Assembly: GCA_903887775.1 (NCBI GenBank)
Contig: CAISRB010000008.1
Location: 16,629 to 80,628, forward strand
Direction of reading: 5' to 3'
Source: an uncultured Bacteroidales bacterium
Lineage (GTDB): Bacteria > Bacteroidota > Bacteroidia > Bacteroidales > FEN-979
Length of the DNA: 64,000 nt
Shown: one piece after another, positions 7,943 through 53,412 of the stretch
Layout: each line of letters begins with the position of its first letter
Position numbering within the stretch: position 1 is the first letter of the stretch
Translations under genes and position numbers: made by a program
Notes under the pieces: model-generated
The model's database searches: none
Seen by the model: only the letters and a program-made list of their open reading frames with translations
What the model was told of the DNA's origin: nothing

Positions 7943-9196
7943 TCAGGAACCTGACAGAAGAAACTTACCCACCTTTTCAAAGATCATTTCAAAGTTCCTG
8001 TCGATCAGACCGGCTTCTGAAACATTCAGGGGAAATGGATTTTCGTGGGTATATTTGTGTTCAAAGTCGAATTCCTCAACAGGGACAGGGATATCGCGGA
8101 AAGCTCCCTGCAGGGTGTTGATGATCTCAAATGAAGAGATCACAGTGTCTTTTTTCAGGCTTATGGCATAAAAGTCTTTTGCATACCTGCGGAAGAGTCC
8201 TTCCCTGAAATCCCTCATCTTCGCATAGTCGAGCATAGCTCTGAAGGTCCTGCCTTCAGGATGGTCTCCTTCAATAAAATGCTTCAGCAGGGGATCCTTT
8301 TTCAGGAAGCTGTCGAAATGTTCAACGAGATACGAATACAATGCCACGTTGGCTTCACTGTCGAGGATGTATTTGCTTACAGGTGATAGCCTGTTAAAGA
8401 CCGCCCCGCTGCAGAACAGGCAGACTTTAGTCCGCCCGAAATAATCTTTATAATTGGTGAGTTTAAGGATCTCTGCAAGCAATCCGCCTATCGAATACGC
8501 AAAAATATTGAACGAGAAGCCGGGATCTATTTGTTCGTGTTTCCCTTCCCGGCATTCCTCAATGAACTGTATCACGTCGTAATATGTCTGCAGTCCCGAC
8601 CAGATAAACCTTTGCGGCATCGAATGCAACCTCATGCTTATGGCCACATTGGTAAGGGTTGAATGGATGATATTCGGGAACCTTTGTTTCCGGGCTTCGC
8701 TGCTGGCGAACATCTTTCGTTTCTCGCTCCATTGGGAAGGACCTCGCTGCATATGGAAGGCAATCGGGTACATGACGACCATGCTGTTTGTATGAAGGCA
8801 GATGGCTCTCGCCCAGGGAAGATACTTGCTCCAGTTCTTCTCATTAAAGCCATGAAACAGCAGCGTGAAGTTCTTAGCCTTCCCGCTTCCCGCAGGCCTC
8901 ATCAGATGTATCGTGAAATGCCTGTTTTCTTTGACGAAAGCATCCGTGATATGGATGTCGTCGTGCAATACTCCTATGTCATTATAATATGAAACAGGAT
9001 AGGAGATATCCTTGTCGTGCTTTTTGCAGTGGTAGTGCTGGTTGCCCGGAAGCAATCCGTGCGACATGGAACTGAATTCAGTGCGGCTGATCACCATCCC
9101 GTCGAATTCCACTTCAGGCCGGCCGGCCAAAAGCGCCTCCTGCAGGCCATGGTAGCTGTTGAAATAATCCATCAAACAAAGGTACAAAAAGGTCAA
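7943..9196 (-). CDS. Hypothetical protein, possible alpha/beta-hydrolase fold
   Basis: 417 aa. The only recognisable motif is a nucleophile-elbow-like FAYSIGGLLAE (A-x-S-x-G). I cannot assign a family from memory. The start could instead be the second Met, at 9172. Confidence 0.35.
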   Translation of the reverse strand: MTFLYLCLMDYFNSYHGLQEALLAGRPEVEFDGMVISRTEFSSMSHGLLPGNQHYHCKKHDKDISYPVSYYNDIGVLHDDIHITDAFVKENRHFTIHLMRPAGSGKAKNFTLLFHGFNEKNWSKYLPWARAICLHTNSMVVMYPIAFHMQRGPSQWSEKRKMFASSEARKQRFPNIIHSTLTNVAISMRLHSMPQRFIWSGLQTYYDVIQFIEECREGKHEQIDPGFSFNIFAYSIGGLLAEILKLTNYKDYFGRTKVCLFCSGAVFNRLSPVSKYILDSEANVALYSYLVEHFDSFLKKDPLLKHFIEGDHPEGRTFRAMLDYAKMRDFREGLFRRYAKDFYAISLKKDTVISSFEIINTLQGAFRDIPVPVEEFDFEHKYTHENPFPLNVSEAGLIDRNFEMIFEKVGKFLLSGS

Positions 9197-9241
9197 ACAT
9201 TATAGACCATGAAGAAGGCTATGATTTATTTACCCTGTACC

Positions 9242-9742
9242 TTACGTAAAGATGATCTGGGTTTGGATCCCGCCGCACTTTTCATAGAAGTCGCCTACGG
9301 TGAGCACGTCCTTTACTCCTTCCCAAAGATCTTCCTTCTTAAGTTTGAACATGTCCATTGCCAGTTTGCAGGCGTATATTTCACCACCGCCGGCTTCTAT
9401 CATTTCAAGGAATTCTTTTACGGGAGGGATGTCAAGCGCTTCCATCTGGCTTTTCATCATCAACGACACACCGGCTTCTACTCCGGGAAGCATGCCAAGA
9501 AGAGTCGGGAACGGCAGCCCGCCGGGCATACGCATTGCAGGATTGCCAACGGTGCCTGTATGAAGGCTGTTCATTTGTTTTTTAGTAATGGCATCCAGTC
9601 CGAAGAAGGTAAAAAAGATCTTCGTCTCAATACCTTCCATCACGGCTCCGTTGCTCATTACCAGGGTTGCATATACGTCTTCAATCGTTCCTTTAGCGCA
9701 TATGATGCAGACTTTTTTCAGGGGAAATTCTTCTTTTGCCAT
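9242..9742 (-). CDS. DsrE/DsrF/DsrH-like (DsrE2-type) sulfur-relay family protein
   Basis: 166 aa. KKVCIICAKGTIEDVYATLVMSNGAVMEGIETKIFFTFFGL plus IYACKLAMDMFKLKKEDL. It is a paralog of 4478-5023. Confidence 0.7.
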   Translation of the reverse strand: MAKEEFPLKKVCIICAKGTIEDVYATLVMSNGAVMEGIETKIFFTFFGLDAITKKQMNSLHTGTVGNPAMRMPGGLPFPTLLGMLPGVEAGVSLMMKSQMEALDIPPVKEFLEMIEAGGGEIYACKLAMDMFKLKKEDLWEGVKDVLTVGDFYEKCGGIQTQIIFT

Positions 9743-9769
9743 TGTTTGTGTTTTTTAGTGCTGTGAATA

Positions 9770-10081
9770 TTACACGCATGAAGCGGGTTTTGGAATACCG
9801 GATATTTTAGCTGCTTTTTTCATGGGAGCTCCGGGAAAAAGCTGGTAGAATCCTTTTATATCAATAAAACCACTGGTCCCCACTGACCTGATAGTGAGGC
9901 TTTCACCTTTTGCCTGCCTTTCACGGAGGTATTCAATTACCTGATAGTGTTTCTCGGTAAGCTCAATACCTTCTTCTTTTGCAATCTCCTTTGCGATGTC
10001 TTTAGTCCATTGTGAACGATCGGTCATGTACCCGTCATCGTTTACATCCACGCTGATTCCAGCAAAAACTTTCTGTGCCAT
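9770..10081 (-). CDS. TusE/DsrC-family sulfur-relay protein (single C-terminal Cys)
   Basis: 103 aa. DDGYMTDRSQWTKDIA..LTEKHYQVIEYLR..GIPKPASCV is the characteristic C-terminal arm ending in CV. Confidence 0.8.
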   Translation of the reverse strand: MAQKVFAGISVDVNDDGYMTDRSQWTKDIAKEIAKEEGIELTEKHYQVIEYLRERQAKGESLTIRSVGTSGFIDIKGFYQLFPGAPMKKAAKISGIPKPASCV

Positions 10082-10132
10082 AATGTTGTGATTAATTTTT
10101 GTTATTACTAATGCTAAATTACAATTTATTAA

Positions 10133-10192
10133 AAGCGAAATGGCGAAAGGCGAAATGGTGAAATTTCGCTTTTCACTTTGAGCTTTTCGCTA
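10133..10192. repeat. GCGAAA-unit imperfect palindrome (member of a dispersed intergenic repeat family)
   Basis: Sequence is aagcgaaatggcgaaaggcgaaatggtgaaa|tttcgcttttcactttgagcttttcgc. The right arm overlaps the last codons and stop of the 10173-10844 gene. Confidence 0.8.
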
Positions 10193-10844
10193 TTTGTTGT
10201 ACAAGCCTGAGCGAGTATGATAAGGACTGCCTCACTTCCGGCGAGTTTAGTTGTTTAAACAATCCGAAAAGTGATTTATTGTCAAGTTTTTCATCGGGTT
10301 TTACTTCGGCAAGTGCAAGAGTCATATTATTCAGGCCTTTCATAAGTGCAGGGTCTGAAAGATTACGTACGATACCTGCAATATTCTCAAGGTTGTTCTG
10401 AAGCCTGATCAGATCTTCCCTTGTGAACAACTGTATCCATTTGTCGACAAAGTTACCGAGTTCACTTATATATTCAAAGTACCCTTTCCTGTCGAGCTCG
10501 TTCATTTTATTCACCGCATCAAGGCCGACCTGGTGCAGTATGGGAGTGACATCCTTCATGAAATCCTTGGCACTTTCCATCATCTCGAACATTTCGTGGA
10601 AGGTGCCGAGGTTCTGAAGTACTTTGATCATAAGTCCCGGCAGGTCCACATGATCGAGTTCAACCTGAGCATTTTCAAGCATTCCGGAGGTATGACGCAC
10701 AACATCTTTAATAACAATGCCCGCATCCTCGACAAAATCGTCGATTTCTTCCCTTTTCTGGTTCTGTAGTGAAACGTATTCCAGGACCATGTCCATTTTC
10801 TGATGGAGCTCATCCAATTGCTCCTGTAATTCTTTTTCAGCCAT
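10173..10844 (-). CDS. DUF1641-like protein (usual partner of SQR-like flavoproteins)
   Basis: 223 aa, helical and acidic. Its position immediately downstream of an SQR-like oxidoreductase matches the common DUF1641 neighbourhood. The family assignment is from memory only. Confidence 0.5.
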   Translation of the reverse strand: MAEKELQEQLDELHQKMDMVLEYVSLQNQKREEIDDFVEDAGIVIKDVVRHTSGMLENAQVELDHVDLPGLMIKVLQNLGTFHEMFEMMESAKDFMKDVTPILHQVGLDAVNKMNELDRKGYFEYISELGNFVDKWIQLFTREDLIRLQNNLENIAGIVRNLSDPALMKGLNNMTLALAEVKPDEKLDNKSLFGLFKQLNSPEVRQSLSYSLRLVQQIAKSSK

Positions 10845-24018: not shown

Positions 24019-26337
24019 TCAGAAGGTTACACTGATGCCGAGGCTTGGCATTATCGGAAGCTGATCAACCTGGGTATAGGAAATACGGTCAAAATAGAAA
24101 ATGTTTTGCTGGTTCAGTGCATTGGTTAAACTGAAGGTTGCGTCAAGTTTCGTATATTTTCCGAGGAAAAAGGTTTTTTTAATGCTAAGGTCAAGCCGGC
24201 TGTAACCCGGAAGTCTTCCCTTGTTATAATCAGCATACAGTATCCCCATATCACCGTTGGTGGTTGTATAATTGCCGCCCATATCACTGAATGTCAGTTT
24301 TTCATAAAAACCCTGAGTCTGGGTAAACGGGAAACCTGATCCGTAATTATATCTTGCGTCAAGTTCCCATGTTCCTTTTTTTCCAAAAAGATAAGTGGCG
24401 ACGAGGTTCAGATTATGCCTTCTGTCCCAGATAGGCACATAATGCATGACCCCGTCATAGAGATGAACATAACAAAGTGAATAGGTGAGCCAAAGGCTGA
24501 GTTTCGAAAGCTGGTATTTAAGCGAGACATCAAGACCTTCTGCATCCCCGGTTTCAAGGATAAAATCCTTTTTAAAATAATCAGGTTTACTCGCGTTTTC
24601 AGGCGTATCGTCATAGAGCTTATTCCTGTTCATTGTCGTAAGCTGGGGATAATACTTATAATATCCTTCAACATTGAGGAAAAGGTTTTTCAGCAAATCC
24701 CATTCAAACCCTAATATAACCTGGTCGCAAAGCTGCAGTCGGGTGTTAACGGATCTCCCCATGAACTCCTTCTGAAGGTTCTGAGGTGCGGCAAGGTAAC
24801 CGGTGAAAAGGCTGACCACGTCCTGGCTGTATGTTGTACTGATCAGGTCCTGGGAATACATGCCTGCAGCCATTTTAAGCCTGAATGCCCGTAGGACGTT
24901 ATATTTTACTGAAAGCCTGGGTTCAAGCCGGATATTTGCGAGTGTTGCATAATATTGCAGTCTCAGACCAGGTTCGATCACAAATTTTCCTACGATCCAC
25001 TTGTATTTTGCATAGGCGGATGCTTCCGTTGTATTCTGGTCATAATTGATGTTCCTGTTGATACTGTTGTAGAAACTCAGAACGGTATGATACCCGGAAC
25101 CCTCAAGCCCGTAACGCAATGAACTTTTCCCGAAGAAATAGGTGAAGTCGAGGCCCACATTGAACCCGCCGATAGAGCTTGAGCGGGGTGACATGTCGAC
25201 TTCTTCCATAGCCACTTTGTAATATGAATAAGCCATATGGCCTTCAAGCAGAACCGGGCTTTTACCCGGTATGGCGACAAAGTTCAATCCGCCACCATAA
25301 GACTTCCAGTTATAATTCTGCAATACCTGGTACTGCACCTTATCGTTAAAATCAAAGCCATACAGGTTTACTTTACTGCCATTGGGCGCATTGATCGAGA
25401 TCTTCCCGTATATATCAAGATAGTTGTAAGGCAATCCGTTTTCGTTGATATAAGTATAAAGAATTTTACTGCTTTGTTCAAGGTATGAGCCTTTAACCGA
25501 GAGAACCAGTGAAGCGGAGGCGTCATTTTCGGTTTTTGCCTTTGCGATAGGTCCTTCAAACAGGCCTTTGGCGCCGAATGTACTGACATCTATTTTTCCC
25601 CCGAAACGATTCTTGTTCCCATCCCTCGTTGTGATATCCATCACGGATGAGATCCTGCCCCCGTATTCAGCATTAAAGCCCCCGGTGTAGACGTCTACAT
25701 TTTTAAGAATGTCAACATCGAATACCGAAAAAAGCCCGATGGAGTGAAAAGGGTTATAAATGATCATACCATCGAGTAATACCTTGTTCTGGATGGGAGG
25801 ACCGCCACGGATATACAATTGTCCGCCCTGGTCACCCGAAAAAATAACCCCGGGCAGTACCTGCAGGTACTGGGCCAGGTCAGGCTGGCCTCCAATGGTC
25901 GGGATCTGCATGATCTCCTTCGGTGTGATCTTGATAATAGACGTCTGGGTCTCTGTTGTTTTTTCCTGTTTTGAAGCGGAAACACTCACCTCCATCAGTT
26001 CAAATGTAGATTTATTAAGATAAAGCTTCTTCGTAAAAAGATCATTCTTATTAACCCTGATCGGGATCCTCAGGGTATCAAAACCGATATAAGTAACCAT
26101 CAGAGTATAATCCCCCGCAGGGATTTTTGAGATCGTGAAAAACCCGTTCTGGTCGGTCGTAGCGCCGAGAGTCGTTTTATACAGGTAAACATTAGTAAAA
26201 AGAACGGGTTCACCGTTTTCTTTCTCATAAACAAACCCTCGGATTATACCATTATTTTGAGCCGATGCTGTGAAATGAGCTGTGATCAGAAGAATCACAA
26301 TGAAAATAGAAGAGGAGAGTAAATTCCGGAAGGTCAT
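24019..26337 (-). CDS. TonB-dependent receptor with an N-terminal CarboxypepD_reg-like domain
   Basis: 772 aa. GIIRGFVYEKENGEPVLFTNVYL..., a plug region (QVLPGV..GGQLYIRGG) and a C-terminal beta-barrel ending in ..SLGISVTF. Confidence 0.85.
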   Translation of the reverse strand: MTFRNLLSSSIFIVILLITAHFTASAQNNGIIRGFVYEKENGEPVLFTNVYLYKTTLGATTDQNGFFTISKIPAGDYTLMVTYIGFDTLRIPIRVNKNDLFTKKLYLNKSTFELMEVSVSASKQEKTTETQTSIIKITPKEIMQIPTIGGQPDLAQYLQVLPGVIFSGDQGGQLYIRGGPPIQNKVLLDGMIIYNPFHSIGLFSVFDVDILKNVDVYTGGFNAEYGGRISSVMDITTRDGNKNRFGGKIDVSTFGAKGLFEGPIAKAKTENDASASLVLSVKGSYLEQSSKILYTYINENGLPYNYLDIYGKISINAPNGSKVNLYGFDFNDKVQYQVLQNYNWKSYGGGLNFVAIPGKSPVLLEGHMAYSYYKVAMEEVDMSPRSSSIGGFNVGLDFTYFFGKSSLRYGLEGSGYHTVLSFYNSINRNINYDQNTTEASAYAKYKWIVGKFVIEPGLRLQYYATLANIRLEPRLSVKYNVLRAFRLKMAAGMYSQDLISTTYSQDVVSLFTGYLAAPQNLQKEFMGRSVNTRLQLCDQVILGFEWDLLKNLFLNVEGYYKYYPQLTTMNRNKLYDDTPENASKPDYFKKDFILETGDAEGLDVSLKYQLSKLSLWLTYSLCYVHLYDGVMHYVPIWDRRHNLNLVATYLFGKKGTWELDARYNYGSGFPFTQTQGFYEKLTFSDMGGNYTTTNGDMGILYADYNKGRLPGYSRLDLSIKKTFFLGKYTKLDATFSLTNALNQQNIFYFDRISYTQVDQLPIMPSLGISVTF

Positions 26338-26457
26338 AGGGTCATTCTTAGTAAGAAAAATAAGATGGCCTCAAAAGTAGCTAAAATGTACGATTTAAAA
26401 AAGAAACGCTTTATGAAAAAATTCTTATTTTTGCTCAGACACATTCATTATACTATC

Positions 26458-28068
26458 ATGGCAAACAAGCTTTTATTATTAGGCGACGAAGCTATCGCCC
26501 TGGGTGCGCTGGATGCCGGTTTATCGGGGATCTATGCCTATCCCGGAACTCCTTCGACTGAAATTACAGAATACGTGCAGCATTCAAAAACTGCAAAAGA
26601 AAATAACATTCATTGTACCTGGTCCGCCAACGAAAAAACAGCCATGGAAGCGGCTTTAGGCATGTCATATGCCGGCAAACGGGCTATGGTGTGTATGAAG
26701 CACGTCGGTCTTAATGTCGCAGCAGACCCCTTCATCAACTCAGCGATAACAGGCGCGAACGGCGGGCTTATCGTTGTCTCAGCCGATGACCCTTCGATGC
26801 ATTCATCGCAGAACGAACAGGATTCAAGGTTTTATGGTAAGTTCGCAATGGTCCCGATTCTCGAGCCATCGAGCCAGCAGGAAGCCTATGATATGGTTCA
26901 TTATGGCTTTGACTTCTCTGAAAAATACCAGGTTCCAGTTTTAATCCGCATCACCACCCGCATGGCACATTCCCGTTCCGGTGTTGTTCGCAGTGATTGC
27001 CGGGAACAGAACACATTGCATCTGCCTTCCGACCTGAGGCAGTTTGTTCTTCTGCCGGCTATTGCAAAAAAACGATATAATAAACTGCTGGAGACACATC
27101 GGTTTTTTATTGAAGAATCTGAGAATTCGCCGTTTAATGCTTATCATGACGGGCCTGATAAATCGCTGGGTATCCTGGTCGCGGGTATTGCATTGAACTA
27201 CCTGATGGAGAATTTCCCCGACCGCAAAATACCATATCCGTTACTGAAAATCGGCCAGTATCCTATGCCCCGCAAGCTGGTTGAGAAGCTGGTCGGCGAA
27301 AGCCGCGAGGTTCTGATAGTCGAAGACGGTTATCCCATGATTGAAGAACTTATCCGCGGATACATTCCCGGGCAAAAAAAGATCAGGGGCAGGTTCGACG
27401 GAAGCATTCCCCGTACCGGTGAGTTAAACCCTAACATTCTCGCGGTGGCACTTGGTTTGCCTGATACCCAGGGGTTGCCGGTTCCGGACCTGATGGTGGG
27501 ACGTCCCCCTCAGCTATGTGCAGGTTGCCCGCATATTGATTCCTATAAAGCGTTGAATGAAGTGCTTGAAGCTCTTCCAAAGGGAAGGGTTTTTTCCGAT
27601 ATCGGTTGTTATACGCTGGGGGCATTAAAGCCCTATGAAGCCATCAACAGCTGTGTCGACATGGGCGCTTCGATTACGATGGCCAAAGGGGCTGCCGATG
27701 CAGGTTTTGTACCATCTGTGGCAGTGATAGGCGATTCCACGTTTACACACAGTGGAATTACAGGGCTGCTGGATGCGGTGAATGATAAATCACCGGTCAC
27801 GGTGATCATCCTTGACAATGCAACCACCGCTATGACTGGAGGGCAGGATTCGGCCGGTACGGGACGCATCGAAGATATCTGCAAAGGGGTTGGCGTTGAA
27901 GAAGCACATATCCGTGTGATCAGGCCTCTCAGGAAATATCACGAAGAAAATGTGACAATAATCCGGGAGGAGCTTAATTATAACGGCGTTTCGGTTATTA
28001 TCCCGAGAAGGGAATGTATCGTAACCGTGGATAAAAGAATGAGAGAGAAATTCAGGCAAAAACAATAA
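26458..28068 (+). CDS. iorA: Indolepyruvate:ferredoxin oxidoreductase subunit alpha
   Basis: MANKLLLLGDEAIALGALDAGLSGIYAYPGTPSTEI..., with the TPP-binding GDSTF..H motif. The start was moved to the ATG at 26458; the upstream 31 codons of the track ORF look like a spurious extension. Confidence 0.85.
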   Translation: MANKLLLLGDEAIALGALDAGLSGIYAYPGTPSTEITEYVQHSKTAKENNIHCTWSANEKTAMEAALGMSYAGKRAMVCMKHVGLNVAADPFINSAITGANGGLIVVSADDPSMHSSQNEQDSRFYGKFAMVPILEPSSQQEAYDMVHYGFDFSEKYQVPVLIRITTRMAHSRSGVVRSDCREQNTLHLPSDLRQFVLLPAIAKKRYNKLLETHRFFIEESENSPFNAYHDGPDKSLGILVAGIALNYLMENFPDRKIPYPLLKIGQYPMPRKLVEKLVGESREVLIVEDGYPMIEELIRGYIPGQKKIRGRFDGSIPRTGELNPNILAVALGLPDTQGLPVPDLMVGRPPQLCAGCPHIDSYKALNEVLEALPKGRVFSDIGCYTLGALKPYEAINSCVDMGASITMAKGAADAGFVPSVAVIGDSTFTHSGITGLLDAVNDKSPVTVIILDNATTAMTGGQDSAGTGRIEDICKGVGVEEAHIRVIRPLRKYHEENVTIIREELNYNGVSVIIPRRECIVTVDKRMREKFRQKQ

Positions 28069-28078
28069 TATTTTCAAA

Positions 28079-28146
28079 ATGAAATACCCATACTAACAAT
28101 GTTCATACCAACCGTGAATGTTAATTATGGGTATTCCATGTGACCG
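28079..28146 (+). repeat. Conserved 68-nt hairpin element, copy B, in the iorA-iorB spacer
   Basis: Same ATGAAATACCCAT / ATGGGTATTCCAT stem, and the same A.C mismatch, as copy A at 15379-15447. Confidence 0.7.
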
Positions 28147-28173
28147 ATTTGTTAAAAAATAAATTATTTACAC

Positions 28174-28758
28174 ATGAAAAAAGATATCATCTTGGCAGGA
28201 GTGGGAGGCCAGGGAATCATTTCCATTGCTTCTGTGATCGGCTATGCCGCTCTTCAGGAAAAGATGTTTCTTAAGCAGTCAGAGGTTCATGGAATGAGCC
28301 AGAGGGGAGGAGACGTCATGTCGAACCTGAGGATCTCCCATGATGAAATCGCATCGGACCTTATTCCTTTCGGACAGGCCGATCTCATTATTTCAGTAGA
28401 ACCTCTCGAGTCACTCAGGTATCTCAGCTACCTCTCTCCCACTGAAGGCTGGCTTGTAACCAATATTACACCTTTCAATAATATTCCCAATTATCCGGAT
28501 ATTGAGGAAGTAATAGCCGGGATCAATAAAATTCCCCGTCATATCGCCCTCGACGCTGACAAACTGGCAAAAGAAGCGGGATCAGCGAAATCGGCTAATA
28601 TCGTTATCCTGGGGGCTGCTTCACCTTTCCTGGGGCTGGCTTTTGAAAAATTTCAGGATGCGATCCGCTTTATTTTCAGGTCAAAGGAAGAATCTGTGAT
28701 AGAAAAAAACCTGGAAGCTCTGAAACTGGGCAGGGATTTTACTGATCAGAATATTTGA
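28174..28758 (+). CDS. iorB: Indolepyruvate:ferredoxin oxidoreductase subunit beta
   Basis: 194 aa. KDIILAGVGGQGIISIASVIG..EVHGMSQRGG. Confidence 0.85.
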   Translation: MKKDIILAGVGGQGIISIASVIGYAALQEKMFLKQSEVHGMSQRGGDVMSNLRISHDEIASDLIPFGQADLIISVEPLESLRYLSYLSPTEGWLVTNITPFNNIPNYPDIEEVIAGINKIPRHIALDADKLAKEAGSAKSANIVILGAASPFLGLAFEKFQDAIRFIFRSKEESVIEKNLEALKLGRDFTDQNI

Positions 28759-28802
28759 AATATTATCTATCTTTACATGTTGTATTAATCAAAACTATAG
28801 AT

Positions 28803-29990
28803 ATGAGGATCCTTCAAAGGAAATTTGCTCATTATACTGATCCGCAAAAAGTGGAAAGGCTGGGGATCTATCCTTTCTTCAGGATGATAGAATCGGAACA
28901 GGATACTGTGGTAACCATTGGTGGGAAAAAAGTGCTGATGTTTGGTTCAAACAGTTATCTGGGGCTCACCAATCATCCTGCGATCAAGGAAGCTGCAATA
29001 AAGGCCACCGAAAAATACGGGACAGGATGTGCAGGATCAAGGTTTCTGAACGGCACCCTCGATTTGCATGTTGAGCTTGAGAAGAAACTTGCCGAATTTG
29101 TTCACAAGGATGCAGCCTTGGTTTTCAGCACAGGTTTCCAGGTTAATATAGGAGTCATACCAACGGTTACGGGACGTAACGATTATCTTCTTATTGATGA
29201 GCTTGATCATGCCTCCATAATTGAAGCAACCCGGCTTTCCTTCGCGAAGGTCGTAAAATACCGTCATAACGACATGCAATCCCTCGAGAGGATCCTGAAA
29301 AGATGTGAACCGAACAGGGTTAAACTGATTGTCGTGGATGGCATTTTCAGTATGGACGGGGATATTGTAAAACTTCCTGAAATAGTAAAACTTGCCGATA
29401 AATATGATGCTTCCGTGATGGTTGATGATGCCCATGCTATTGGTGTCATCGGGGAAAACGGATCAGGCACTGCATCCCATTTCGGTCTGACGAAGAAGGT
29501 TGACCTTATTATGGGCACCTTTTCGAAATCCCTGGCAGCGCTGGGAGGTTTCATTGCCAGCGATTTCGAAACTATCAATTACATAAAACACCACTCCCGC
29601 TCACTCATTTTCAGCGCGAGTATGACACCGGCTTCTGCAGCTACTGTACTTGCTGCACTCGAATTGCTGAAAAGCGAACCCCAACGTATAAAACATCTCT
29701 GGGATCTGACATGGTATGCCCTGGAAAACTTCAAACGGCTAGGATTCGACACAGGGCTTTCTCATACACCGATTATTCCTCTTTATATCCGGGACAATAT
29801 TAAAACCCTTACCCTGACGAAGATGTTACTGGATGAGGGTGTCTTTATTAACCCGGTAGTTTCTCCGGCAGTCAGTAAAGACAATACCCTGATCCGTTTT
29901 TCACTCATGGCAACTCATACCAAAGAGCAGATCGATACCGCACTTGAGAAATTTGAAAGGGTTGGGAAAAAGCTACGCATCATCAAATGA
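28803..29990 (+). CDS. spt: Alpha-oxoamine synthase, serine palmitoyltransferase-like
   Basis: RLGIYPFFRMIESEQDTVVTIGGKKVLMFGSNSYLGLTNHP..KYGTGCAGSRFLNGTLDLHVELE..GTFSKSLAALGGF. This closely resembles my recollection of Bacteroides and Porphyromonas Spt. The start is set at the ATG at 28803. Confidence 0.75.
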   Translation: MRILQRKFAHYTDPQKVERLGIYPFFRMIESEQDTVVTIGGKKVLMFGSNSYLGLTNHPAIKEAAIKATEKYGTGCAGSRFLNGTLDLHVELEKKLAEFVHKDAALVFSTGFQVNIGVIPTVTGRNDYLLIDELDHASIIEATRLSFAKVVKYRHNDMQSLERILKRCEPNRVKLIVVDGIFSMDGDIVKLPEIVKLADKYDASVMVDDAHAIGVIGENGSGTASHFGLTKKVDLIMGTFSKSLAALGGFIASDFETINYIKHHSRSLIFSASMTPASAATVLAALELLKSEPQRIKHLWDLTWYALENFKRLGFDTGLSHTPIIPLYIRDNIKTLTLTKMLLDEGVFINPVVSPAVSKDNTLIRFSLMATHTKEQIDTALEKFERVGKKLRIIK

Positions 29991-30008
29991 TGCAATAAAC
30001 CAACAACC

Positions 30009-31139
30009 ATGGCCATTCAAATTAAACCGGTCAAGACGAGAACTGATCTGAGCCGTTTTATCAAATTTCCTTACAGCCTGTACAAGGGTAATAAATACTG
30101 GTGCCCTCCCATGCGAATGGATGAACGGAATACCTTAAGCCCTAAAAAGAATCCGGCATTCGATTTCTGTGAAGCTCAGTATTTTCTTGCGTATAAAGGG
30201 AAAGAGCTGGTTGGGAGAGTTGCCGGCATTATAAACCACGCATCAAATACCCGCTGGAACGAAAAGCTTGTGAGATTTGGGTGGATTGATTTTACCGATG
30301 ATCCTGAAGTATCAGGGGCCCTGATTGATGCCGTGACTGCATGGGGAAAGGAAAATGGCATGATAGGGATTCACGGTCCGCTTGGCTTTTCGGATATGGA
30401 TAATGAAGGTATGTTGATTGAAGGGTTCGAAGAACTGGCTACCATGGCATCGATATACAACTATCCGTATTATATGGAACATATGCAGAAGATGGGTTTT
30501 GAGAGGGCTGCCGATTGGGTCCAGTATGAATTTGAGATGCCGCCTATTCCTGAAAAAATCCACAGAGCTGCCGGCTTGATCGCCAGAAAATACAATCTTA
30601 GAGTACTGCAGGCAAAAAAGGCGAAAGATTTTCTAGCCTATGCCCCTAAAATGTGGGCTACCCTGAATGAAGCATTCGATAATCTGTACGGTTATACGAA
30701 ACTTACGCAAAAGCAGACAGTTCTTTATACAAAGCAATATTTCCCGTTCATCAACCCTGATTATGTTTGTATGGTGCTGAATGAGCATGACGATGTAGCA
30801 GGGTTTGGGATCTGCCTTCCTTCGCTTACACGCGCCCTTCAGAAATGCAACGGCAGGTTGTTCCCTTTTGGCTGGTATCATATCATGAGAGCGCTTAAAT
30901 CAAATGAGATCATCGACATGTACCTTAACGGGGTCAAACCGGAATATCAGAACAAGGGAGTCGTTTCAATCTATCATCTTGAGTTACATAAAGGATTTTT
31001 GAAGAACAACGTAAAATATGTCGTCACGAACCCACAGCTTGAAGACAATAAATCGGCGGTTTTGATGTGGAAGAGTTATGAGACAGCCCGTCAGCATCTC
31101 AAACGTCGCTGCTGGATAAAACATTTTAATGAGCATTGA
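30009..31139 (+). CDS. GNAT-like acyltransferase-family protein (376 aa), paralog 1
   Basis: The C-terminal motif-A-like sequence is GVKPEYQNKGVVS. The conserved N-terminal region is FPYSLYKGNKYWCPP..VGRVAGIIN..VRFGWIDF..GPLGFSDMDNEGML. It is clearly paralogous to 32159-33277 and more distantly to 53413-54609. Confidence 0.5.
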   Translation: MAIQIKPVKTRTDLSRFIKFPYSLYKGNKYWCPPMRMDERNTLSPKKNPAFDFCEAQYFLAYKGKELVGRVAGIINHASNTRWNEKLVRFGWIDFTDDPEVSGALIDAVTAWGKENGMIGIHGPLGFSDMDNEGMLIEGFEELATMASIYNYPYYMEHMQKMGFERAADWVQYEFEMPPIPEKIHRAAGLIARKYNLRVLQAKKAKDFLAYAPKMWATLNEAFDNLYGYTKLTQKQTVLYTKQYFPFINPDYVCMVLNEHDDVAGFGICLPSLTRALQKCNGRLFPFGWYHIMRALKSNEIIDMYLNGVKPEYQNKGVVSIYHLELHKGFLKNNVKYVVTNPQLEDNKSAVLMWKSYETARQHLKRRCWIKHFNEH

Positions 31140-32143
31140 TGGGTAATATCCTGATCACTGGTGCAAGCGGGTTCATTGGCAGTTTTCTTGCGGAAGAAGC
31201 ATTGAAAAGGGACCTCGATGTTTTTGCCGGCCTCAGGAAATCAAGCTCCCGCCGATATCTGCAGGATTCCCGTATACGGTTCGTTGAACTGGATTTTACC
31301 GATAAAACTCGGCTAAAAGAAACCCTTCTTGAGCAGAAGCAGAAAGGCATTCATTTCGATACAATCATCCACAATGCAGGGCTTACGAAAGCCCGGAAAA
31401 AGGAAGATTTTTACAGGGTTAATTACAGGTTCACAAAAAATTTTATTGAGGCATTGACAGAAACCGGAACTGTCCCCCTGAAGTTCATTTACATAAGCAG
31501 CCTTGCGGCATATGGACCGGGTAATGAGCTCAGCATGAAACCTGTGATGCTCGATGATATCCCAAAACCGGTCGACGAATACGGAAAAAGTAAACTTGAA
31601 TCTGAAAAATACATCAGGTCACTGAATGGATTTCCCTGGCTTATCATTCGTCCTTCGGGTGTATACGGTCCAAGGGAAAAAGATTATTTTGTTTACTTCC
31701 AGACCATCAGCAGGGGGATGGAACCATATATCGGTTTCAAACCGCAGATACTGACCTTTATATATGTTAAGGACCTTGTCAGGCTGATCCTTGATGCAGC
31801 ATTCTCGGGCATTACAGGGAAATCATATTTTGTGACCGATGGGAAGCAATATGATTCGAGGGAATTTGCAGCAATAACAAAAAAACACCTGCAGAAGAAA
31901 ACCCTCAGGATCACTCTTCCGCTGAAACTTGTCGGGGGAATCGCTTTGGCGATGGAAAAAATTTTCAGCCTTGCAGGCAGCATGCCCACGCTGAACACCG
32001 ATAAATTCAAGATAATGAAAAGTACGAACTGGACCTGCCAGGTGGATGTTCTTGAGAAAGATTTCAACTTCCAGGCAGAATATGACCTCGACAGAGGTGT
32101 GAAAGAGGTTCTCGAATGGTACAAAAACGAAGGCTGGTTATAA
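31139..32143 (+). CDS. Extended short-chain dehydrogenase/reductase (NAD-dependent epimerase/dehydratase family)
   Basis: ILITGASGFIGSFL is the Rossmann motif and YGKSK is the YxxxK catalytic motif. The ATG overlaps the upstream TGA by 1 nt. Confidence 0.8.
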   Translation: MGNILITGASGFIGSFLAEEALKRDLDVFAGLRKSSSRRYLQDSRIRFVELDFTDKTRLKETLLEQKQKGIHFDTIIHNAGLTKARKKEDFYRVNYRFTKNFIEALTETGTVPLKFIYISSLAAYGPGNELSMKPVMLDDIPKPVDEYGKSKLESEKYIRSLNGFPWLIIRPSGVYGPREKDYFVYFQTISRGMEPYIGFKPQILTFIYVKDLVRLILDAAFSGITGKSYFVTDGKQYDSREFAAITKKHLQKKTLRITLPLKLVGGIALAMEKIFSLAGSMPTLNTDKFKIMKSTNWTCQVDVLEKDFNFQAEYDLDRGVKEVLEWYKNEGWL

Positions 32144-32158
32144 TTAATCCCTCCCCTG

Positions 32159-33277
32159 ATGATAGAGATCAGAAAAGTCACGACATCCGCAGAATTAAAA
32201 AAATTTATTACATTCCCTCACCATCTTTATAAAGGCAATCTGTATTGGTGCCCCCCTATCATAATGGATGAGAAAGTCACGCTTTCATCTAAGAAGAATC
32301 ATGCTTTTGAATATTGCAAGGCCGAATACTGGCTGGCATATAAAGATGGTAAGCTGGCAGGCAGAGTGGCAGGGATTATAAACCCCAAAGCCAATAAACG
32401 CTGGTCGGAGGACCTGGTTAGGTTTGGATGGATAGATTTCATTGACGACTCTGAGGTTTCGGAAAAACTTATAGCTACGGTTGAGGCATGGGGTATATCA
32501 CAGGGAATGAAAGGTATTCAGGGCCCTCTCGGTTTTACCGATATGGACAATGAAGGAATGATGGTTGAAGGTTTTGACCAGCACTGCACTCTTTCTTCAA
32601 TCTACAATTATCCTTACTATGTTGACCATATGGTGCGGATGGGATTCGTGAAGGCAGCCGACTGGGTCCAGTATGAGTTTGAAATACCAGAAGAATTACC
32701 GGAAAAGTTTGTTCGTACGGCGAAACTGGTTGAAAATAAATTTCATCTCAGGGTGCTGAAGGCAAGGCGACGGAAAGACCTTTTAGTGTATGCAAAAAAA
32801 ATGTTTGCCATGCTGAATAAGGCATTTGACGAATTGTATGGCTTTGCTGCCCTGAATGAAGAGCAAATGGAGGACTATGTGAAGCAATATTTCGGTTTTA
32901 TCAGGCCTGAATTTGTTGCTTTTGTTTTGGATTCTGAAGATGATATTGTTGGATTTGGTGTCACTATGCCATCGGTCACCAGGGCTTTACAAATATCGAA
33001 CGGTAAGTTCTTCCCTTTTGGCTGGATCAATCTGCTTAAATCTGTGTACTATAATGACACCATCGATATGTACCTGGTGGGAGTCCATCCTGATTATCAT
33101 GGGAAAGGCGCTGCAGCATTGGTTTGGAAGTACCTTCATGAAGCATACCGTAAATATGGGATAACCAAGGCCTATTCGAATCCACAGCTGGAGGATAATG
33201 CCAGGGCCCTGTCGATCTGGAAGAGTTTTGAGGGGAGGCAGATCATCAGGCGAAGGTGCTGGGTAAAGCATTTCTGA
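32159..33277 (+). CDS. GNAT-like acyltransferase-family protein (372 aa), paralog 2
   Basis: FPHHLYKGNLYWCPP..AGRVAGIIN..VRFGWIDF..GPLGFTDMDNEGMM..GVHPDYHGKGAAA. Confidence 0.5.
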   Translation: MIEIRKVTTSAELKKFITFPHHLYKGNLYWCPPIIMDEKVTLSSKKNHAFEYCKAEYWLAYKDGKLAGRVAGIINPKANKRWSEDLVRFGWIDFIDDSEVSEKLIATVEAWGISQGMKGIQGPLGFTDMDNEGMMVEGFDQHCTLSSIYNYPYYVDHMVRMGFVKAADWVQYEFEIPEELPEKFVRTAKLVENKFHLRVLKARRRKDLLVYAKKMFAMLNKAFDELYGFAALNEEQMEDYVKQYFGFIRPEFVAFVLDSEDDIVGFGVTMPSVTRALQISNGKFFPFGWINLLKSVYYNDTIDMYLVGVHPDYHGKGAAALVWKYLHEAYRKYGITKAYSNPQLEDNARALSIWKSFEGRQIIRRRCWVKHF

Positions 33278-33280
33278 AAT

Positions 33281-33310
33281 AAAAAAGGCGACCATCGGCC
33301 GCCTTTTTTA
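33281..33310. terminator. Bidirectional intrinsic terminator between the convergent GNAT-like and susD-like genes
   Basis: AAAAAAGGCGACC-ATC-GGCCGCCTTTTTT. Confidence 0.6.
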
Positions 33311-49395: not shown

Positions 49396-50559
49396 CTACT
49401 TTTTTTCAATCAACGCTTCAATCTTCGCTGTTTCCCTCTCCCAGCTGAAATTATCATGAACAAAACGGCAGCCGTTAAGGCCTATTTCCCTGGCTTTCAC
49501 GGGATTGTTCAGCAGGAAGAGTATATGTTTAACATATTCTTCAGGTGTAGCTGCAACCAGTATATCTTCACCGGATCTGGCTTTCAGGGCCTGGAAGGCA
49601 AGAGGTGAGGTAATGCAGGGAATCTGCATCGCCATGGCCTCCAGAAGTTTGTTCTGAAGGCCCGTACCGATCTGCATCGGGGCGATAAACACTTTAGCGC
49701 TGGCATAGCATTCGCGCATATCGGGCACCCAGCCGCTGACTTCCACGTTATTCGACTTCAGGATCATCACCCGGATGTTGGGATTGGCTCCTGCCAGAAG
49801 CAGATGCAGATCATGCTTTTGCAGAAACAACCTTGGAAGTATCTGGTTGACAAGAAATTCGGCGCTGTTGATGTTAGGCGGATAACCCATATTACCTGTA
49901 AAAACGAGGTCGTATTTTTTCTTTCTTTCGAGGGGTTGGAAGAAATCGGTATCCACTCCATTGGCCACAACAACAATCTTGTTGCGGTCGGGGTGAGGGA
50001 TAAGGTCTCTGTCGGGTTCCGAAATAATGATCTTGTTATCGAAGCAGTCAAACACCATCCGCTCGTAATTCTGAAGCCTCCGGTGTTCAATTTTCAGGAA
50101 CGGTTTCAGATAAAACGCGGAAAGGGCGATTCTCCGGTCAATACCCTTTGAAAAAACATCCTGGTAGTCAATGGTCTTTGGGATAGGAAGATCCTTGACA
50201 TATTCTGCAACCCGGATAAGCTGACAAAAAATATGATCTGGTTTATAGGTGTCGATCAGTTTAAGTATTTGTTTTTTCGCCGACGGACTGTAAAAATAGC
50301 CAACCTGCAACGGCAGTCCGCTGAAAAAAGCTTTTATGATATTCAGAAGGACACTGAACTTGTTAAGTGAAATCACATGCACGGCTTTCACATATTTATT
50401 CAGTACATGCAATGCGTCTTTATGAAGCGCGCTGTCGTTCAGGGAGCAAAGAATTATCTCGTGGTGCCGTGAAAGCTGTTTGATCTGGTGGAATGCCCGG
50501 AGTTTATCGCCTTTTTCTGTCGGATAAGGTACGCGGGGAAGAAGAAAAAATATTCTCAT
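49396..50559 (-). CDS. Glycosyltransferase, GT4-like (GT-B fold)
   Basis: 387 aa. MRIFFLLPRVPYPTEKGDKLR at the N-terminus, with C-terminal GTGLQNKLLEAMAM (E-x7-E-like region). Confidence 0.8.
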   Translation of the reverse strand: MRIFFLLPRVPYPTEKGDKLRAFHQIKQLSRHHEIILCSLNDSALHKDALHVLNKYVKAVHVISLNKFSVLLNIIKAFFSGLPLQVGYFYSPSAKKQILKLIDTYKPDHIFCQLIRVAEYVKDLPIPKTIDYQDVFSKGIDRRIALSAFYLKPFLKIEHRRLQNYERMVFDCFDNKIIISEPDRDLIPHPDRNKIVVVANGVDTDFFQPLERKKKYDLVFTGNMGYPPNINSAEFLVNQILPRLFLQKHDLHLLLAGANPNIRVMILKSNNVEVSGWVPDMRECYASAKVFIAPMQIGTGLQNKLLEAMAMQIPCITSPLAFQALKARSGEDILVAATPEEYVKHILFLLNNPVKAREIGLNGCRFVHDNFSWERETAKIEALIEKK

Positions 50560-50597
50560 GAGTCAATCTGTGGAAAGCAAAAGTAGGAAAATCCTGA

Positions 50598-51794
50598 TTA
50601 AGCAATCAGTTTCATGTAAAAAGCTTCCAGGTTTTCAATGATTTTTTTCCGGTCATATGTCGACTCTGCGAGCTTTCTTGCATTTAATCCTGTTTTCTGA
50701 AGGATCTCAGGATATTCAATGCAAACAGAAATCATCTCGAAGAATTCGCAGGCCAGGTCTGCAACAAGAAGATTCTCTCCCCGTGTATACTCAATGCCTT
50801 CGGCTCCAAGGGAAGTTGAAACAACGGTTTTGCCGTAAGCCATTGCCTCGATGATTTTAATCCGTATTCCGCTGCCCGAGAACAGGGGAACGATCATAAT
50901 ATCATTGGCAGCAAAGAACGATGACGCATCCCTGACCTCACCTTCAACAACCACATTCTTCAGTGAAAGATTTTTCATCCATACAGGCATTTCCCTGCCC
51001 GCAATATGAAATTCAAGCGAGGGATACCGCTTATGGAGGTCGAACCATACATTCTCAATAAACCAGCGTACGCCTTCCTGGTTCGGGATCCAGTTCATAG
51101 CGCCGATAATGAATATCGTAGGATTTTTGTTTACTTTTTCTGATACTCTGTAATCGACCGGATTTATACCAAAAGGTATTGCAATAACCGGGTTTTCGGT
51201 ATGGGCTCTGAAAAAATCAGCATCGTTTCCGGTGATGGCGGCCACCCCGTCAACGAGGTCGGGAATGGTTATTTCGAACAGTTTCAGTGTCCTTGCAAGG
51301 TGGTCAATATACAACCTTTTAAAAGGATTGGACGAATTTGCAGCTACTCTTTCCCAGATAAGGTGTTCGATGTTATGGGCCCTGAGAATGATCCTGGCTT
51401 TTGAATACCTGCGGATGACATTGATGTAAGAAGCCATCACAAGGGTTTCAAGCTGAACTATTTCGTATTCTGATTCCTGCAATACTTCCTTAATCCGTTC
51501 TGAGAATGAAGCCGAAATGAAACGTTCAACATGATATGAACGGCTGGTGAAGAAATTTGTAAAAGCCGGGAGCAACTTCACCCTCAGGTCGACATCGATC
51601 AGCTCGATCCCGGTTTTGTCCTTGTAATCAGGAGGAATATCGGCCGGATTAATATTATATTTAAAGGAATTGACAGCTAATACTTTTACAGAATGACCGG
51701 CATCCAACATCCCTTCAATGAGCATATTCATTGCTATCGGCCCCCCTTCCTTTGGTGGCCAGGGCGATTTATTGCAAAGGAATAATATCCTCAT
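50598..51794 (-). CDS. Glycosyltransferase, GT4-like (GT-B fold)
   Basis: 398 aa. MRILFLCNKSPWPPKEGGPIAM at the N-terminus, with C-terminal GSGIRIKIIEAMAYG. The start overlaps the upstream stop by 4 nt. Confidence 0.8.
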   Translation of the reverse strand: MRILFLCNKSPWPPKEGGPIAMNMLIEGMLDAGHSVKVLAVNSFKYNINPADIPPDYKDKTGIELIDVDLRVKLLPAFTNFFTSRSYHVERFISASFSERIKEVLQESEYEIVQLETLVMASYINVIRRYSKARIILRAHNIEHLIWERVAANSSNPFKRLYIDHLARTLKLFEITIPDLVDGVAAITGNDADFFRAHTENPVIAIPFGINPVDYRVSEKVNKNPTIFIIGAMNWIPNQEGVRWFIENVWFDLHKRYPSLEFHIAGREMPVWMKNLSLKNVVVEGEVRDASSFFAANDIMIVPLFSGSGIRIKIIEAMAYGKTVVSTSLGAEGIEYTRGENLLVADLACEFFEMISVCIEYPEILQKTGLNARKLAESTYDRKKIIENLEAFYMKLIA

Positions 51795-53257
51795 AGGCCC
51801 TGCTCGTTTTGAATTCGGAATATTTTCTGGAAGAACTTAATCCAGCTGTCGACATCTAGTAATGAAGCGTCATTTGTGGCTTTACGGGTCAGAAAAGCGC
51901 CGATCGGCAAAAGGACGGCCGAAGCCAGCCACATGCCCTGCCATACAGCTACCTGCCCGTCAGCGGCATACTTTTCGCCGGTAAAGGATATGATCCAGTA
52001 AAGAATAAAAAAAATGGTTGAAATAACCGCAGGCATTCCGAGGCCGCCTTTGCGGATTATAGCACCCAGGGGGGCGCCTATGAAAAATAACAGGAAGCAT
52101 GCAATTGAGAACGTGAACTTTTTATGAAACACAATCAGGTGCTTGTATACAAGTTTCTCCTTGATGTCAAAATTGTCACTTGAAACACTCACGTTTTCTT
52201 TCACTGAGTTGGCCGTATTATAAGCTGCGTTGATAATATTGAACCTGTCTGAAGGTTCAAAACTGGCCAGAATGTTGCTGGCAAAAAAGGCTTTGCTCTT
52301 TTTACTTCCGGGTTTGTCCGGAACATTTCGTTTAAAAGGTGTAAACGCTGTGTCACGGCCGGTAAGCACGGTAAAATTATTGAACATATTATCAGACGAT
52401 GTTTTTCTTTCTTTAAGAATTTCCTGACGGATGGAATCGATTGAAAAACGGAGCTGGCTGATGTTCAGCATCTCGTAATTCTTTTTGAACAGATTTTCAT
52501 CGGTGCGGGTCAGTTGTAAGCCTGAAAGATCAAACATCTGGTACTGTTCACTGAATTTTGTCCTCTGGAATGGCCTTGTCATCTCATTCCTCCGCAAATC
52601 GATGCGTTCTTCGTAGTTATACCCGTTATACAGCCTGAAGACCAGAAATCGTTTATCGGCGCTGAGTTCCATTTTGCCCCATTCTGCAACGGTCATTGAA
52701 ACATTTCCCATATGCTTTGTATGGTCATAGACCATGACGTCGCGGATGGTGTTGCCATCTGCGTCCTTTTTTCCCACCCTGATCACAAATCCATCAATGC
52801 CATTATAAAAAACACCTTCCCTGAGATTAAATGAAAGTTTCTTTTCCCTCACGTCATACAGTAAAGAAAGAAATTTAAGATTAGCTTTCGGAAGCACGAT
52901 ATTGGCAAAATAAAAAGCAAGCACGGAAATCAGTATGGATACGACGATCAGCGCCCGCATGATACGGAACAGGCTGATCCCGGCAGCTTTCATAGTCACC
53001 AGTTCATAATGTTCCCCCAGGTTCCCGAAGGTCATCAGGGAGGATAAGAGGATGGCCAGAGGAAGGGCCATGGGAACGAAAGTAGACGATGCGAAGAATA
53101 GCAGCTTAAGAATAATATACCATTCGAGCCCCTTGCCGACAAGGTCATCGATATACTTCCATAAAAACTGCATGAGCAAAATGAACAGGGCAATGAAGAA
53201 TGTCATAACGAGCGGCCCCAGGTATGATTTTAAAATGAACCAGTCGAGTTTCTTCAT
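51791..53257 (-). CDS. LptF/LptG-family LPS export permease
   Basis: 488 aa. LDWFILKSYLGPLVMTFFIALFILLMQFLW, a large periplasmic loop and C-terminal TM helices. Confidence 0.8.
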   Translation of the reverse strand: MKKLDWFILKSYLGPLVMTFFIALFILLMQFLWKYIDDLVGKGLEWYIILKLLFFASSTFVPMALPLAILLSSLMTFGNLGEHYELVTMKAAGISLFRIMRALIVVSILISVLAFYFANIVLPKANLKFLSLLYDVREKKLSFNLREGVFYNGIDGFVIRVGKKDADGNTIRDVMVYDHTKHMGNVSMTVAEWGKMELSADKRFLVFRLYNGYNYEERIDLRRNEMTRPFQRTKFSEQYQMFDLSGLQLTRTDENLFKKNYEMLNISQLRFSIDSIRQEILKERKTSSDNMFNNFTVLTGRDTAFTPFKRNVPDKPGSKKSKAFFASNILASFEPSDRFNIINAAYNTANSVKENVSVSSDNFDIKEKLVYKHLIVFHKKFTFSIACFLLFFIGAPLGAIIRKGGLGMPAVISTIFFILYWIISFTGEKYAADGQVAVWQGMWLASAVLLPIGAFLTRKATNDASLLDVDSWIKFFQKIFRIQNEQGL

Positions 53258-53319
53258 GATGCGAATCTTAAAGCAAAGATAACTATTTGTTCAATTTAAG
53301 TTACATTTGCATACTAAAT

Positions 53320-53400
53320 AGCGAAGTAGCGAAATGGCGAGGTAGCGAAATTAAGTTTCGAAACATTCAGATAAACATTTTCGCTATCTCGCTACTTCAC
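53320..53400. repeat. GCGAA-unit inverted-repeat element flanked by an 8-nt direct repeat (MITE-like signature)
   Basis: The left end is AGCGAAGTAGCGAAAT. The right end reverse-complemented is GTGAAGTAGCGAGAT (13 of 15 match). TACTAAAT occurs at 53312-53319 and 53401-53408. Confidence 0.7.
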
Positions 53401-53412
53401 TACTAAATTATT

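Follow-up and report, generated by a model that had tools for sequence, protein, structure and literature searches.

Which lipid would be made by a gene string that joins an alpha-oxoamine synthase to two GNAT-like proteins and a reductase? The question is raised by positions 26458-33277 of a 64,000-nt stretch of DNA (the window) from an uncultured Bacteroidales bacterium (GTDB FEN-979; assembly GCA_903887775.1, contig CAISRB010000008.1), which had been read from its letters alone as a candidate operon for a sphingolipid-like or novel amino lipid (the original prediction). Our analysis points to a known answer. The last four of the six genes quite likely encode the bacterial dihydroceramide pathway, made up of serine palmitoyltransferase (Spt), a bacterial ceramide synthase (bCerS) and a ceramide reductase (CerR). 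A novel amino lipid is not needed, since this pathway accounts for the genes. Rather than a new lipid system, the locus appears to be a clustered Bacteroidales form of the ceramide pathway, with a family-specific duplication of the synthase gene and, in this lineage, iorAB on its 5' side. The listing of open reading frames (ORFs) and a direct reading of the junctions gave six genes on the + strand, among them an extended short-chain dehydrogenase/reductase (SDR):

26458-28068, + strand: iorA-like alpha subunit of a 2-oxoacid:ferredoxin oxidoreductase (Pfam POR_N and TPP_enzyme_C; TIGR03336)
28174-28758, + strand: iorB, beta subunit of an indolepyruvate-type oxidoreductase (NF005324)
28803-29990, + strand: Spt, predicted serine palmitoyltransferase of the CFB type, 395 aa as in its orthologues (NF047600)
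30009-31139, + strand: bCerS-A (GNAT-A), predicted tandem-GNAT N-acyltransferase of the bacterial ceramide synthase clade (YghO homology, tree, structural model)
31139-32143, + strand: predicted CerR-type extended SDR, a ceramide or 3-keto reductase (Pfam Epimerase; reciprocal best hit)
32159-33277, + strand: bCerS-B (GNAT-B), family-specific paralogue of bCerS-A (YghO homology, tree)

The genes are spaced by 105, 44, 18, -1 and 15 nt in that order, and the short or overlapping junctions described in the original prediction, including the TGATG shared by the GNAT-A and SDR genes at 31137-31141, were borne out. An identical set of six genes in identical order is present in another genus of the same family (genome G113, locus L015), and the arrangement is also kept in a closer relative, on a 255-kb contig with independent gene calls. 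Because it recurs in both, the arrangement is conserved and does not reflect chance adjacency. This gene order and the conservation of the cluster were established in the analysis, as were the homology and predicted fold described below.

The oxoamine synthase of the operon appears to be a CFB-type serine palmitoyltransferase. It scored 677.5 bits against the NCBIfam equivalog model for that enzyme (NF047600; cut-off, 640 bits), and the KBL, BioF and ALAS models each stayed under their own cut-offs on this protein. The nearest solved structures were those of the Sphingobacterium multivorum enzyme (PDB 3A2B and 8GUH; 507 bits), compared with at most 314 bits for KBL and BioF structures and 248 bits for cysteate-C-fatty acyltransferase (CFAT; 28eh). 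The spt gene of Escherichia coli UTI89 had the window Spt as its best match in the genome, and in the loci examined the protein shares 58-82% identity with its orthologues from other members of the order. Passing the NF047600 cut-off and scoring 507 bits against serine palmitoyltransferase rule out a cysteate acyltransferase, KBL or BioF, and the original prediction of a Bacteroidota Spt is upheld by the same two results. The genome encodes four oxoamine synthases: Spt, two glycine C-acetyltransferases (KBL), both of which are above their cut-offs, and a SulA-like protein. The prediction had also allowed for a sulfonolipid (capnine) route with a different amino acid; for this oxoamine synthase we rejected that alternative, given the separate SulA orthologue elsewhere in the genome. 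The two KBL paralogues lie 2.7 kb apart on another contig (C7:39772-44968), with genes for a holo-acyl carrier protein (ACP) synthase and an acetyl-coenzyme A (CoA)-synthetase-like ligase between them.

For the remaining proteins, our reference was E. coli UTI89, whose sphingolipid locus is described in a 2026 preprint as being like that of Caulobacter. We searched the annotated UTI89 record in six frames. The RefSeq gene order is yghO, fatty acyl-AMP ligase, NAD-dependent epimerase/dehydratase, ACP, spt, lptG and lptF, and the distance between yghO and the best UTI89 homologue of Spt is 3.4 kb.

GNAT-A matched no Pfam or NCBIfam family, and a sequence search of the PDB yielded no relative; GNAT-B gave a weak match to Pfam Acetyltransf_1 over residues 233-354, in its C-terminal part. 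In BLASTP comparisons with UTI89 YghO, the E value was 1e-43 for GNAT-A (27% identity) and 2e-45 for GNAT-B, with alignments spanning about 355 of 380 residues. The only YghO homologues in the genome are GNAT-A, GNAT-B and a third protein outside the operon, paralogue C. An AlphaFold2 model of GNAT-A built from a 25-sequence alignment had a mean predicted local distance difference test score of 91.3 and a tandem-GNAT fold, and its best structural matches were 5KF1, 7Q3A, 2WPW and MshD (template-modelling score about 0.6; Foldseek E value 5e-14). Like the model, the solved tandem-GNAT structures (glucosamine N-acetyltransferase 5KF1, MAB_4324 7Q3A and MshD 1OZP) have two GNAT domains per chain, but they share only 10-14% sequence identity with it and use acetyl-CoA and small polar acceptors.

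We placed these proteins in a maximum likelihood tree of 68 family members. YghO, every Spt-linked GNAT, GNAT-A and GNAT-B fell into one 51-row clade (100/100), which led us to classify GNAT-A and GNAT-B as predicted N-acyltransferases of the bCerS clade. Within it, each window protein formed a sister pair with its own G113 orthologue (WIN_A with G113_A and WIN_B with G113_B; 100/98), and the single-copy genes of gut lineages formed the neighboring sister clade. Because A and B pair separately with G113 orthologues, the duplication of the synthase dates to this family. GNAT-A and GNAT-B share 56% identity across their entire length, as expected of the paralogous pair that was predicted to flank the SDR, and the end-to-end YghO homology and shared clade likewise favor the bCerS-type function proposed for them. 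Both paralogues are probably active N-acyltransferases, because both retain the family-invariant residues and each has a separate G113 orthologue. Most likely, they differ in their preference for an acyl donor or a long-chain base. Elsewhere in the tree, the A-type GNATs of two metagenome-assembled genomes labeled Steroidobacteraceae and Proteobacteria (loci L075 and L088) were nested within Bacteroidales clades, which suggests mis-binned contigs or recent transfer.

The SDR aligned over its full length with the reductase of the UTI89 sphingolipid locus (25% identity; E value, 4e-27), and the two proteins were reciprocal best hits. Searched against the genome, the UTI89 reductase found the window SDR at 2.5e-22, ahead of a runner-up at 1.3e-16; searched against UTI89, the window SDR found the locus reductase at 3.1e-16, ahead of a runner-up at 3.4e-9. 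This reciprocal match to the epimerase-family reductase of the UTI89 locus agrees with the CerR-type role that had been predicted. The TGxxGFIG motif, Ser120 and Y148xxxK152 are invariant in eight SDR sequences that include the E. coli protein. In the window SDR, the Rossmann motif begins at residue 7, and there is no N-terminal extension and no visible signal peptide. For Caulobacter CerR, a periplasmic location has been reported. In this order, a cytoplasmic reductase would be more likely, given the lack of an N-terminal extension and the apparent fusion of the reductase to the cytoplasmic-type synthase in one genome, described below.

These assignments suggest a pathway for which we infer the substrates, and also the order of reactions from knock-outs in Caulobacter and B. 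fragilis. Spt would convert serine and a long-chain acyl thioester to 3-ketosphinganine. A bCerS-type tandem-GNAT enzyme would then N-acylate the keto base in the cytoplasm, and the CerR-type extended SDR would use NAD(P)H to reduce the 3-keto group, yielding dihydroceramide. The synthase gene would have been duplicated in an ancestor of the family, leaving the two diverged copies on either side of the reductase gene. At most, iorAB would be a source of branched or aryl acyl-CoA, with a lineage-specific tie to the lipid genes.

The step order draws partly on experiments in B. fragilis. A preprint on B. fragilis reports that a knock-out of BF9343_4218 (CerS) accumulates 3-ketosphinganine and that a knock-out of BF9343_4240 (CerR) accumulates keto-dihydroceramide; these phenotypes set acylation before reduction. 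The two genes, which are 22 locus tags apart, had been identified by homology to CCNA_01212 and CCNA_01222. When we scanned named genomes with the A-type alignment, Bacteroides, Phocaeicola, Parabacteroides, Porphyromonas, Muribaculaceae and others matched. Each of Bacteroides, Parabacteroides and Porphyromonas has a single GNAT (43-49% identity) and a single SDR (34-49%). In both Bacteroides bouchesdurhonensis and Bacteroides xylanisolvens, there is exactly one GNAT member (49% identical to GNAT-A) and one strong SDR orthologue (47% identical to the window SDR), separated by 55 kb and 49 kb, respectively. Their copy number and synteny are compatible with these genes being the counterparts of BF9343_4218 and BF9343_4240. 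The single-copy homologues are dispersed in Bacteroides, with the GNAT and SDR genes about 50 kb apart and Spt elsewhere, whereas in the window the genes are contiguous and the synthase is duplicated.

The proteobacterial locus (CCNA_01220 spt, CCNA_01222 cerR and CCNA_01212 bcerS in Caulobacter, and the UTI89 locus) draws on the same three enzyme families. In contrast to that locus, the window cluster contains no dedicated ACP, acyl-ACP synthetase or second LptF/G gene, its bCerS is present in two copies and shares an operon with spt, and its Spt is of the CFB type. The identity between the two systems is only 25-28%.

Our survey covered 121 genomes, each from a different family of the order, with paralogues counted partly by hand from the listing. 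Spt was found in 39 genomes. All 39 also have an A/B-clade GNAT (one fragmentary), compared with 40 of the 82 Spt-negative genomes (p about 1e-9). The GNAT gene directly adjoins Spt in about 16 of the Spt-positive genomes, and an Spt-GNAT-SDR operon occurs in nine sampled loci, representing at least nine families, with SDR orthologues that are 40-62% identical. Where the genes are dispersed, Spt-positive genomes usually carry a single GNAT (42-47% identity) and a single SDR orthologue (41-50%). In one genome (G081; locus L026, contig C15), a 706-aa ORF at 8472-10592, directly 3' of Spt, consists of a GNAT (residues 3-377) followed by an SDR (residues 383-706); such a predicted fusion would be classic evidence of functional coupling. 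According to a published generalization, ceramide genes are dispersed and not clustered in sphingolipid-producing Bacteroidota, and one paper states that cerS never shares an operon with spt. Our survey corrects both statements at the level of the whole order.

One further arrangement was seen in G003 (locus L050), where a bCerS-CerR pair heads an operon on the minus strand (C7, 1899-8106) that also contains genes for myo-inositol-1-phosphate synthase, a PgpA-like phosphatase, a CDP-alcohol phosphatidyltransferase and a PAP2_3 protein. These partners resemble genes for inositol lipids or inositol phosphoceramide. G003 has no Spt orthologue, and its oxoamine synthases are KBL-like and SulA-like only. 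We did not count its bCerS-CerR pair as a SulA partner; the case is ambiguous, as the pair shares an operon with genes of the inositol-lipid or inositol phosphoceramide type.

Three further features lie within or beside the six genes:

26426-26433, + strand: -7 promoter-like motif of the Bacteroidota type, TATTTTTG, 25 nt 5' of the iorA ATG
28079-28146, + strand: 68-nt hairpin element within the 105-nt iorA-iorB spacer (28069-28173), which it fills
33283-33310, no strand assigned: intrinsic terminator hairpin with A-run and U-run flanks, between the unit and a convergent susD

Tight junctions and one strong terminator delimit the unit. The terminator hairpin has a predicted stability of -16.7 kcal/mol (z = -4.6; none of 200 shuffles was equally stable), and beyond it lies a convergent susD/susC pair on the opposite strand. 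The -7 motif is the sole + strand match of its type within 26000-30700, and none lies between iorB and Spt. Over the whole window, the motif count is at chance level; it is by position alone that the copy 5' of iorA becomes a suggestive pointer to a promoter. A sigma-70 promoter scan was uninformative (13 sites, versus 14.7 expected). We infer that 26458-33277 is a single transcription unit and that iorAB are probably co-transcribed with the lipid genes.

The iorA ORF opens at 26365, and orthologue lengths of 535-548 aa fit a start at the ATG at 26458. IorA scored 532.7 bits against TIGR03336 (IOR_alpha), under the cut-off of 650.9, and IorB scored 283.5 bits against NF005324, passing the cut-off of 222. 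The pair is predicted to be a 2-oxoacid:ferredoxin oxidoreductase of the indolepyruvate oxidoreductase (IOR) family, with IorA falling short of the specific indolepyruvate assignment. It is present in a single copy as the only IOR of the genome. The 68-nt hairpin between the two genes looks like a recent insertion, because the spacer is absent from a close relative, where iorA and iorB overlap.

Outside the operon, the window holds the third, more distant member of the GNAT family, in a conserved neighborhood:

53413-54609, + strand: paralogue C (C type), 398 aa, a distant third GNAT paralogue
51791-53257, - strand: LptF/G-family permease, divergent from paralogue C
50598-51794, - strand: GT4 gene
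49396-50559, - strand: GT4 gene

Paralogue C has no Pfam or NCBIfam family and no match in a PDB sequence search, and it aligns with YghO over nearly its full length (BLASTP E value, 9e-39). With paralogue C as the query, yghO was the only UTI89 homologue (E value, 2.9e-34). In the tree, a branch of length 1.7 sets the C-type proteins of roughly 400 aa apart as a clade of their own. The four-gene module (49396-54609) recurs in G113, G003, G064 and G117, and a locus of G108 (L046) has the C gene, LptF/G and one GT4 gene. The LptF/G neighbor, as in Caulobacter, made paralogue C a candidate for the "true" bCerS; we rejected it on finding that YghO groups with A and B instead. The LptF/G gene itself is probably the housekeeping copy, because the genome contains just one weak paralogue of it.

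The SulA orthologue is encoded on another contig (C19:60786-62009), where it stands alone; it scored 601 bits against Alistipes SulA (PDB 7U7H) and 554 bits against CFAT (28eh). SulA-like orthologues that are 57-76% identical were found in 96 of the 121 sampled genomes, and the first step of sulfonolipid synthesis therefore looks near-universal outside gut lineages. The sulfonolipid pathway (cysteate synthase, CFAT/SulA/CapB and ketocapnine reductase) follows a parallel chemistry, with an oxoamine synthase, a reductase and an N-acylation. It differs from the window cluster in its oxoamine synthase, which is SulA and not Spt. The sulfonolipid literature that we consulted names enzymes for just three of the four steps, the first three, and leaves the N-acylation enzyme unnamed.

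Several points weigh against assigning the last four genes to the ceramide pathway. Identity to the E. coli proteins is low, at 27-28% for the GNATs compared with YghO and 25% for the SDR compared with the reductase. The connection to CCNA_01212 and CCNA_01222 and to the B. fragilis proteins runs through E. coli YghO and synteny. The lack of a visible signal peptide on the SDR sits uneasily with the reported periplasmic location of Caulobacter CerR. The presence of A/B-clade GNATs in 40 Spt-negative genomes means that the clade extends beyond ceramide synthesis. This last observation, together with a review stating that bacterial Spt enzymes can accept alanine, would favor a cluster that uses another amino acid or amine to make a non-ceramide product, such as a 1-deoxy or glycine-derived amino lipid. 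We consider such a product very unlikely, as Spt exceeds a curated equivalog cut-off and is well conserved across the order, the genome has distinct genes for SulA and both KBLs, and the Bacteroides GNAT and SDR orthologues match, by synteny, genes whose knock-outs accumulate 3-ketosphinganine or keto-dihydroceramide. A different alternative keeps ceramide as one of two products. The genome would have two long-chain-base pathways, with one paralogue making ceramide and the other N-acylating capnine or 3-ketocapnine derived from the SulA-type product. The SulA orthologue in this genome and the unnamed N-acylation enzyme leave room for such a division, and among Spt-positive genomes, 12 of the 23 with SulA have at least two A/B-clade paralogues, compared with 0 of the 16 that lack SulA (p = 4e-4). 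In addition, G005 has two A/B-clade GNATs and a SulA-like protein as its sole oxoamine synthase, and in G069 one GNAT adjoins Spt and another, convergent, adjoins SulA. However, GNAT-A and GNAT-B are close sisters within an otherwise Spt-linked clade, 37 SulA-positive genomes lack any A/B-clade member, and a pair of paralogues is also present in nine Spt-negative genomes. Gut lineages make up most of the SulA-negative set, and all of the SulA contrasts are confounded by phylogeny. Among Spt-negative genomes, an A/B-clade GNAT is present in 36 of 73 with SulA and 4 of 9 without (p = 1.0), which rules out that the clade tracks SulA there. On balance, a sulfonolipid role for one of the two operon paralogues seems unlikely.

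The C type shows a contrast of its own: among the matches listed, at least 50 of the 96 SulA-positive genomes carry it, compared with 1 of the 25 SulA-negative genomes (p = 6e-6; hand count). If either an operon paralogue or the C type supplied the sulfonolipid N-acyltransferase, the Spt and SulA pathways would run in parallel and share the bCerS fold and possibly CerR; we regard this broader proposal, too, as rather improbable. The suggestion that iorAB form a working part of the lipid pathway, converting 2-oxoacids to branched or aryl acyl-CoA primers for iso-branched sphingoid-base and N-acyl chains, fares slightly better but is still doubtful. The 44-nt gap between iorB and Spt contains no terminator, the only promoter-like -7 motif lies 5' of iorA, the iorAB-Spt arrangement is kept in G113 and the closer relative, and no other IOR is encoded in the genome. 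In one gut-type lineage (L067), iorBA lie 3 kb from a CerS orthologue. Against this, iorAB are nearby in none of the 14 other Spt-linked loci examined, which rules them out as a conserved partner beyond the family level, and the finding of iorBA within 8 kb of a CerS orthologue in 1 of 80 named loci is what chance would give (about 0.4 expected). A single-copy IOR likely has a general role in amino acid fermentation, and with IorA under the equivalog cut-off, its family does not fix the substrate. Because iorAB precede Spt only in this family, the metabolic link is weak, and primer supply, as put forward in the original prediction, is still speculative.

For the ceramide pathway, to which we assign the last four genes, the survey shows compact Spt-bCerS-CerR operons to be common among the non-gut lineages of the order. 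The G081 fusion would put bCerS and CerR in one compartment, which bears on the debate over periplasmic reduction. The window operon, with its two diverged synthases, may be a handy cassette for heterologous expression to study specificity for N-acyl chains and long-chain bases, and the same cassette could probe whether the GNAT family carries out the N-acylation step of sulfonolipid synthesis. The division of labor between the synthases, the possible sulfonolipid link and the location of CerR would each be worth an experiment.

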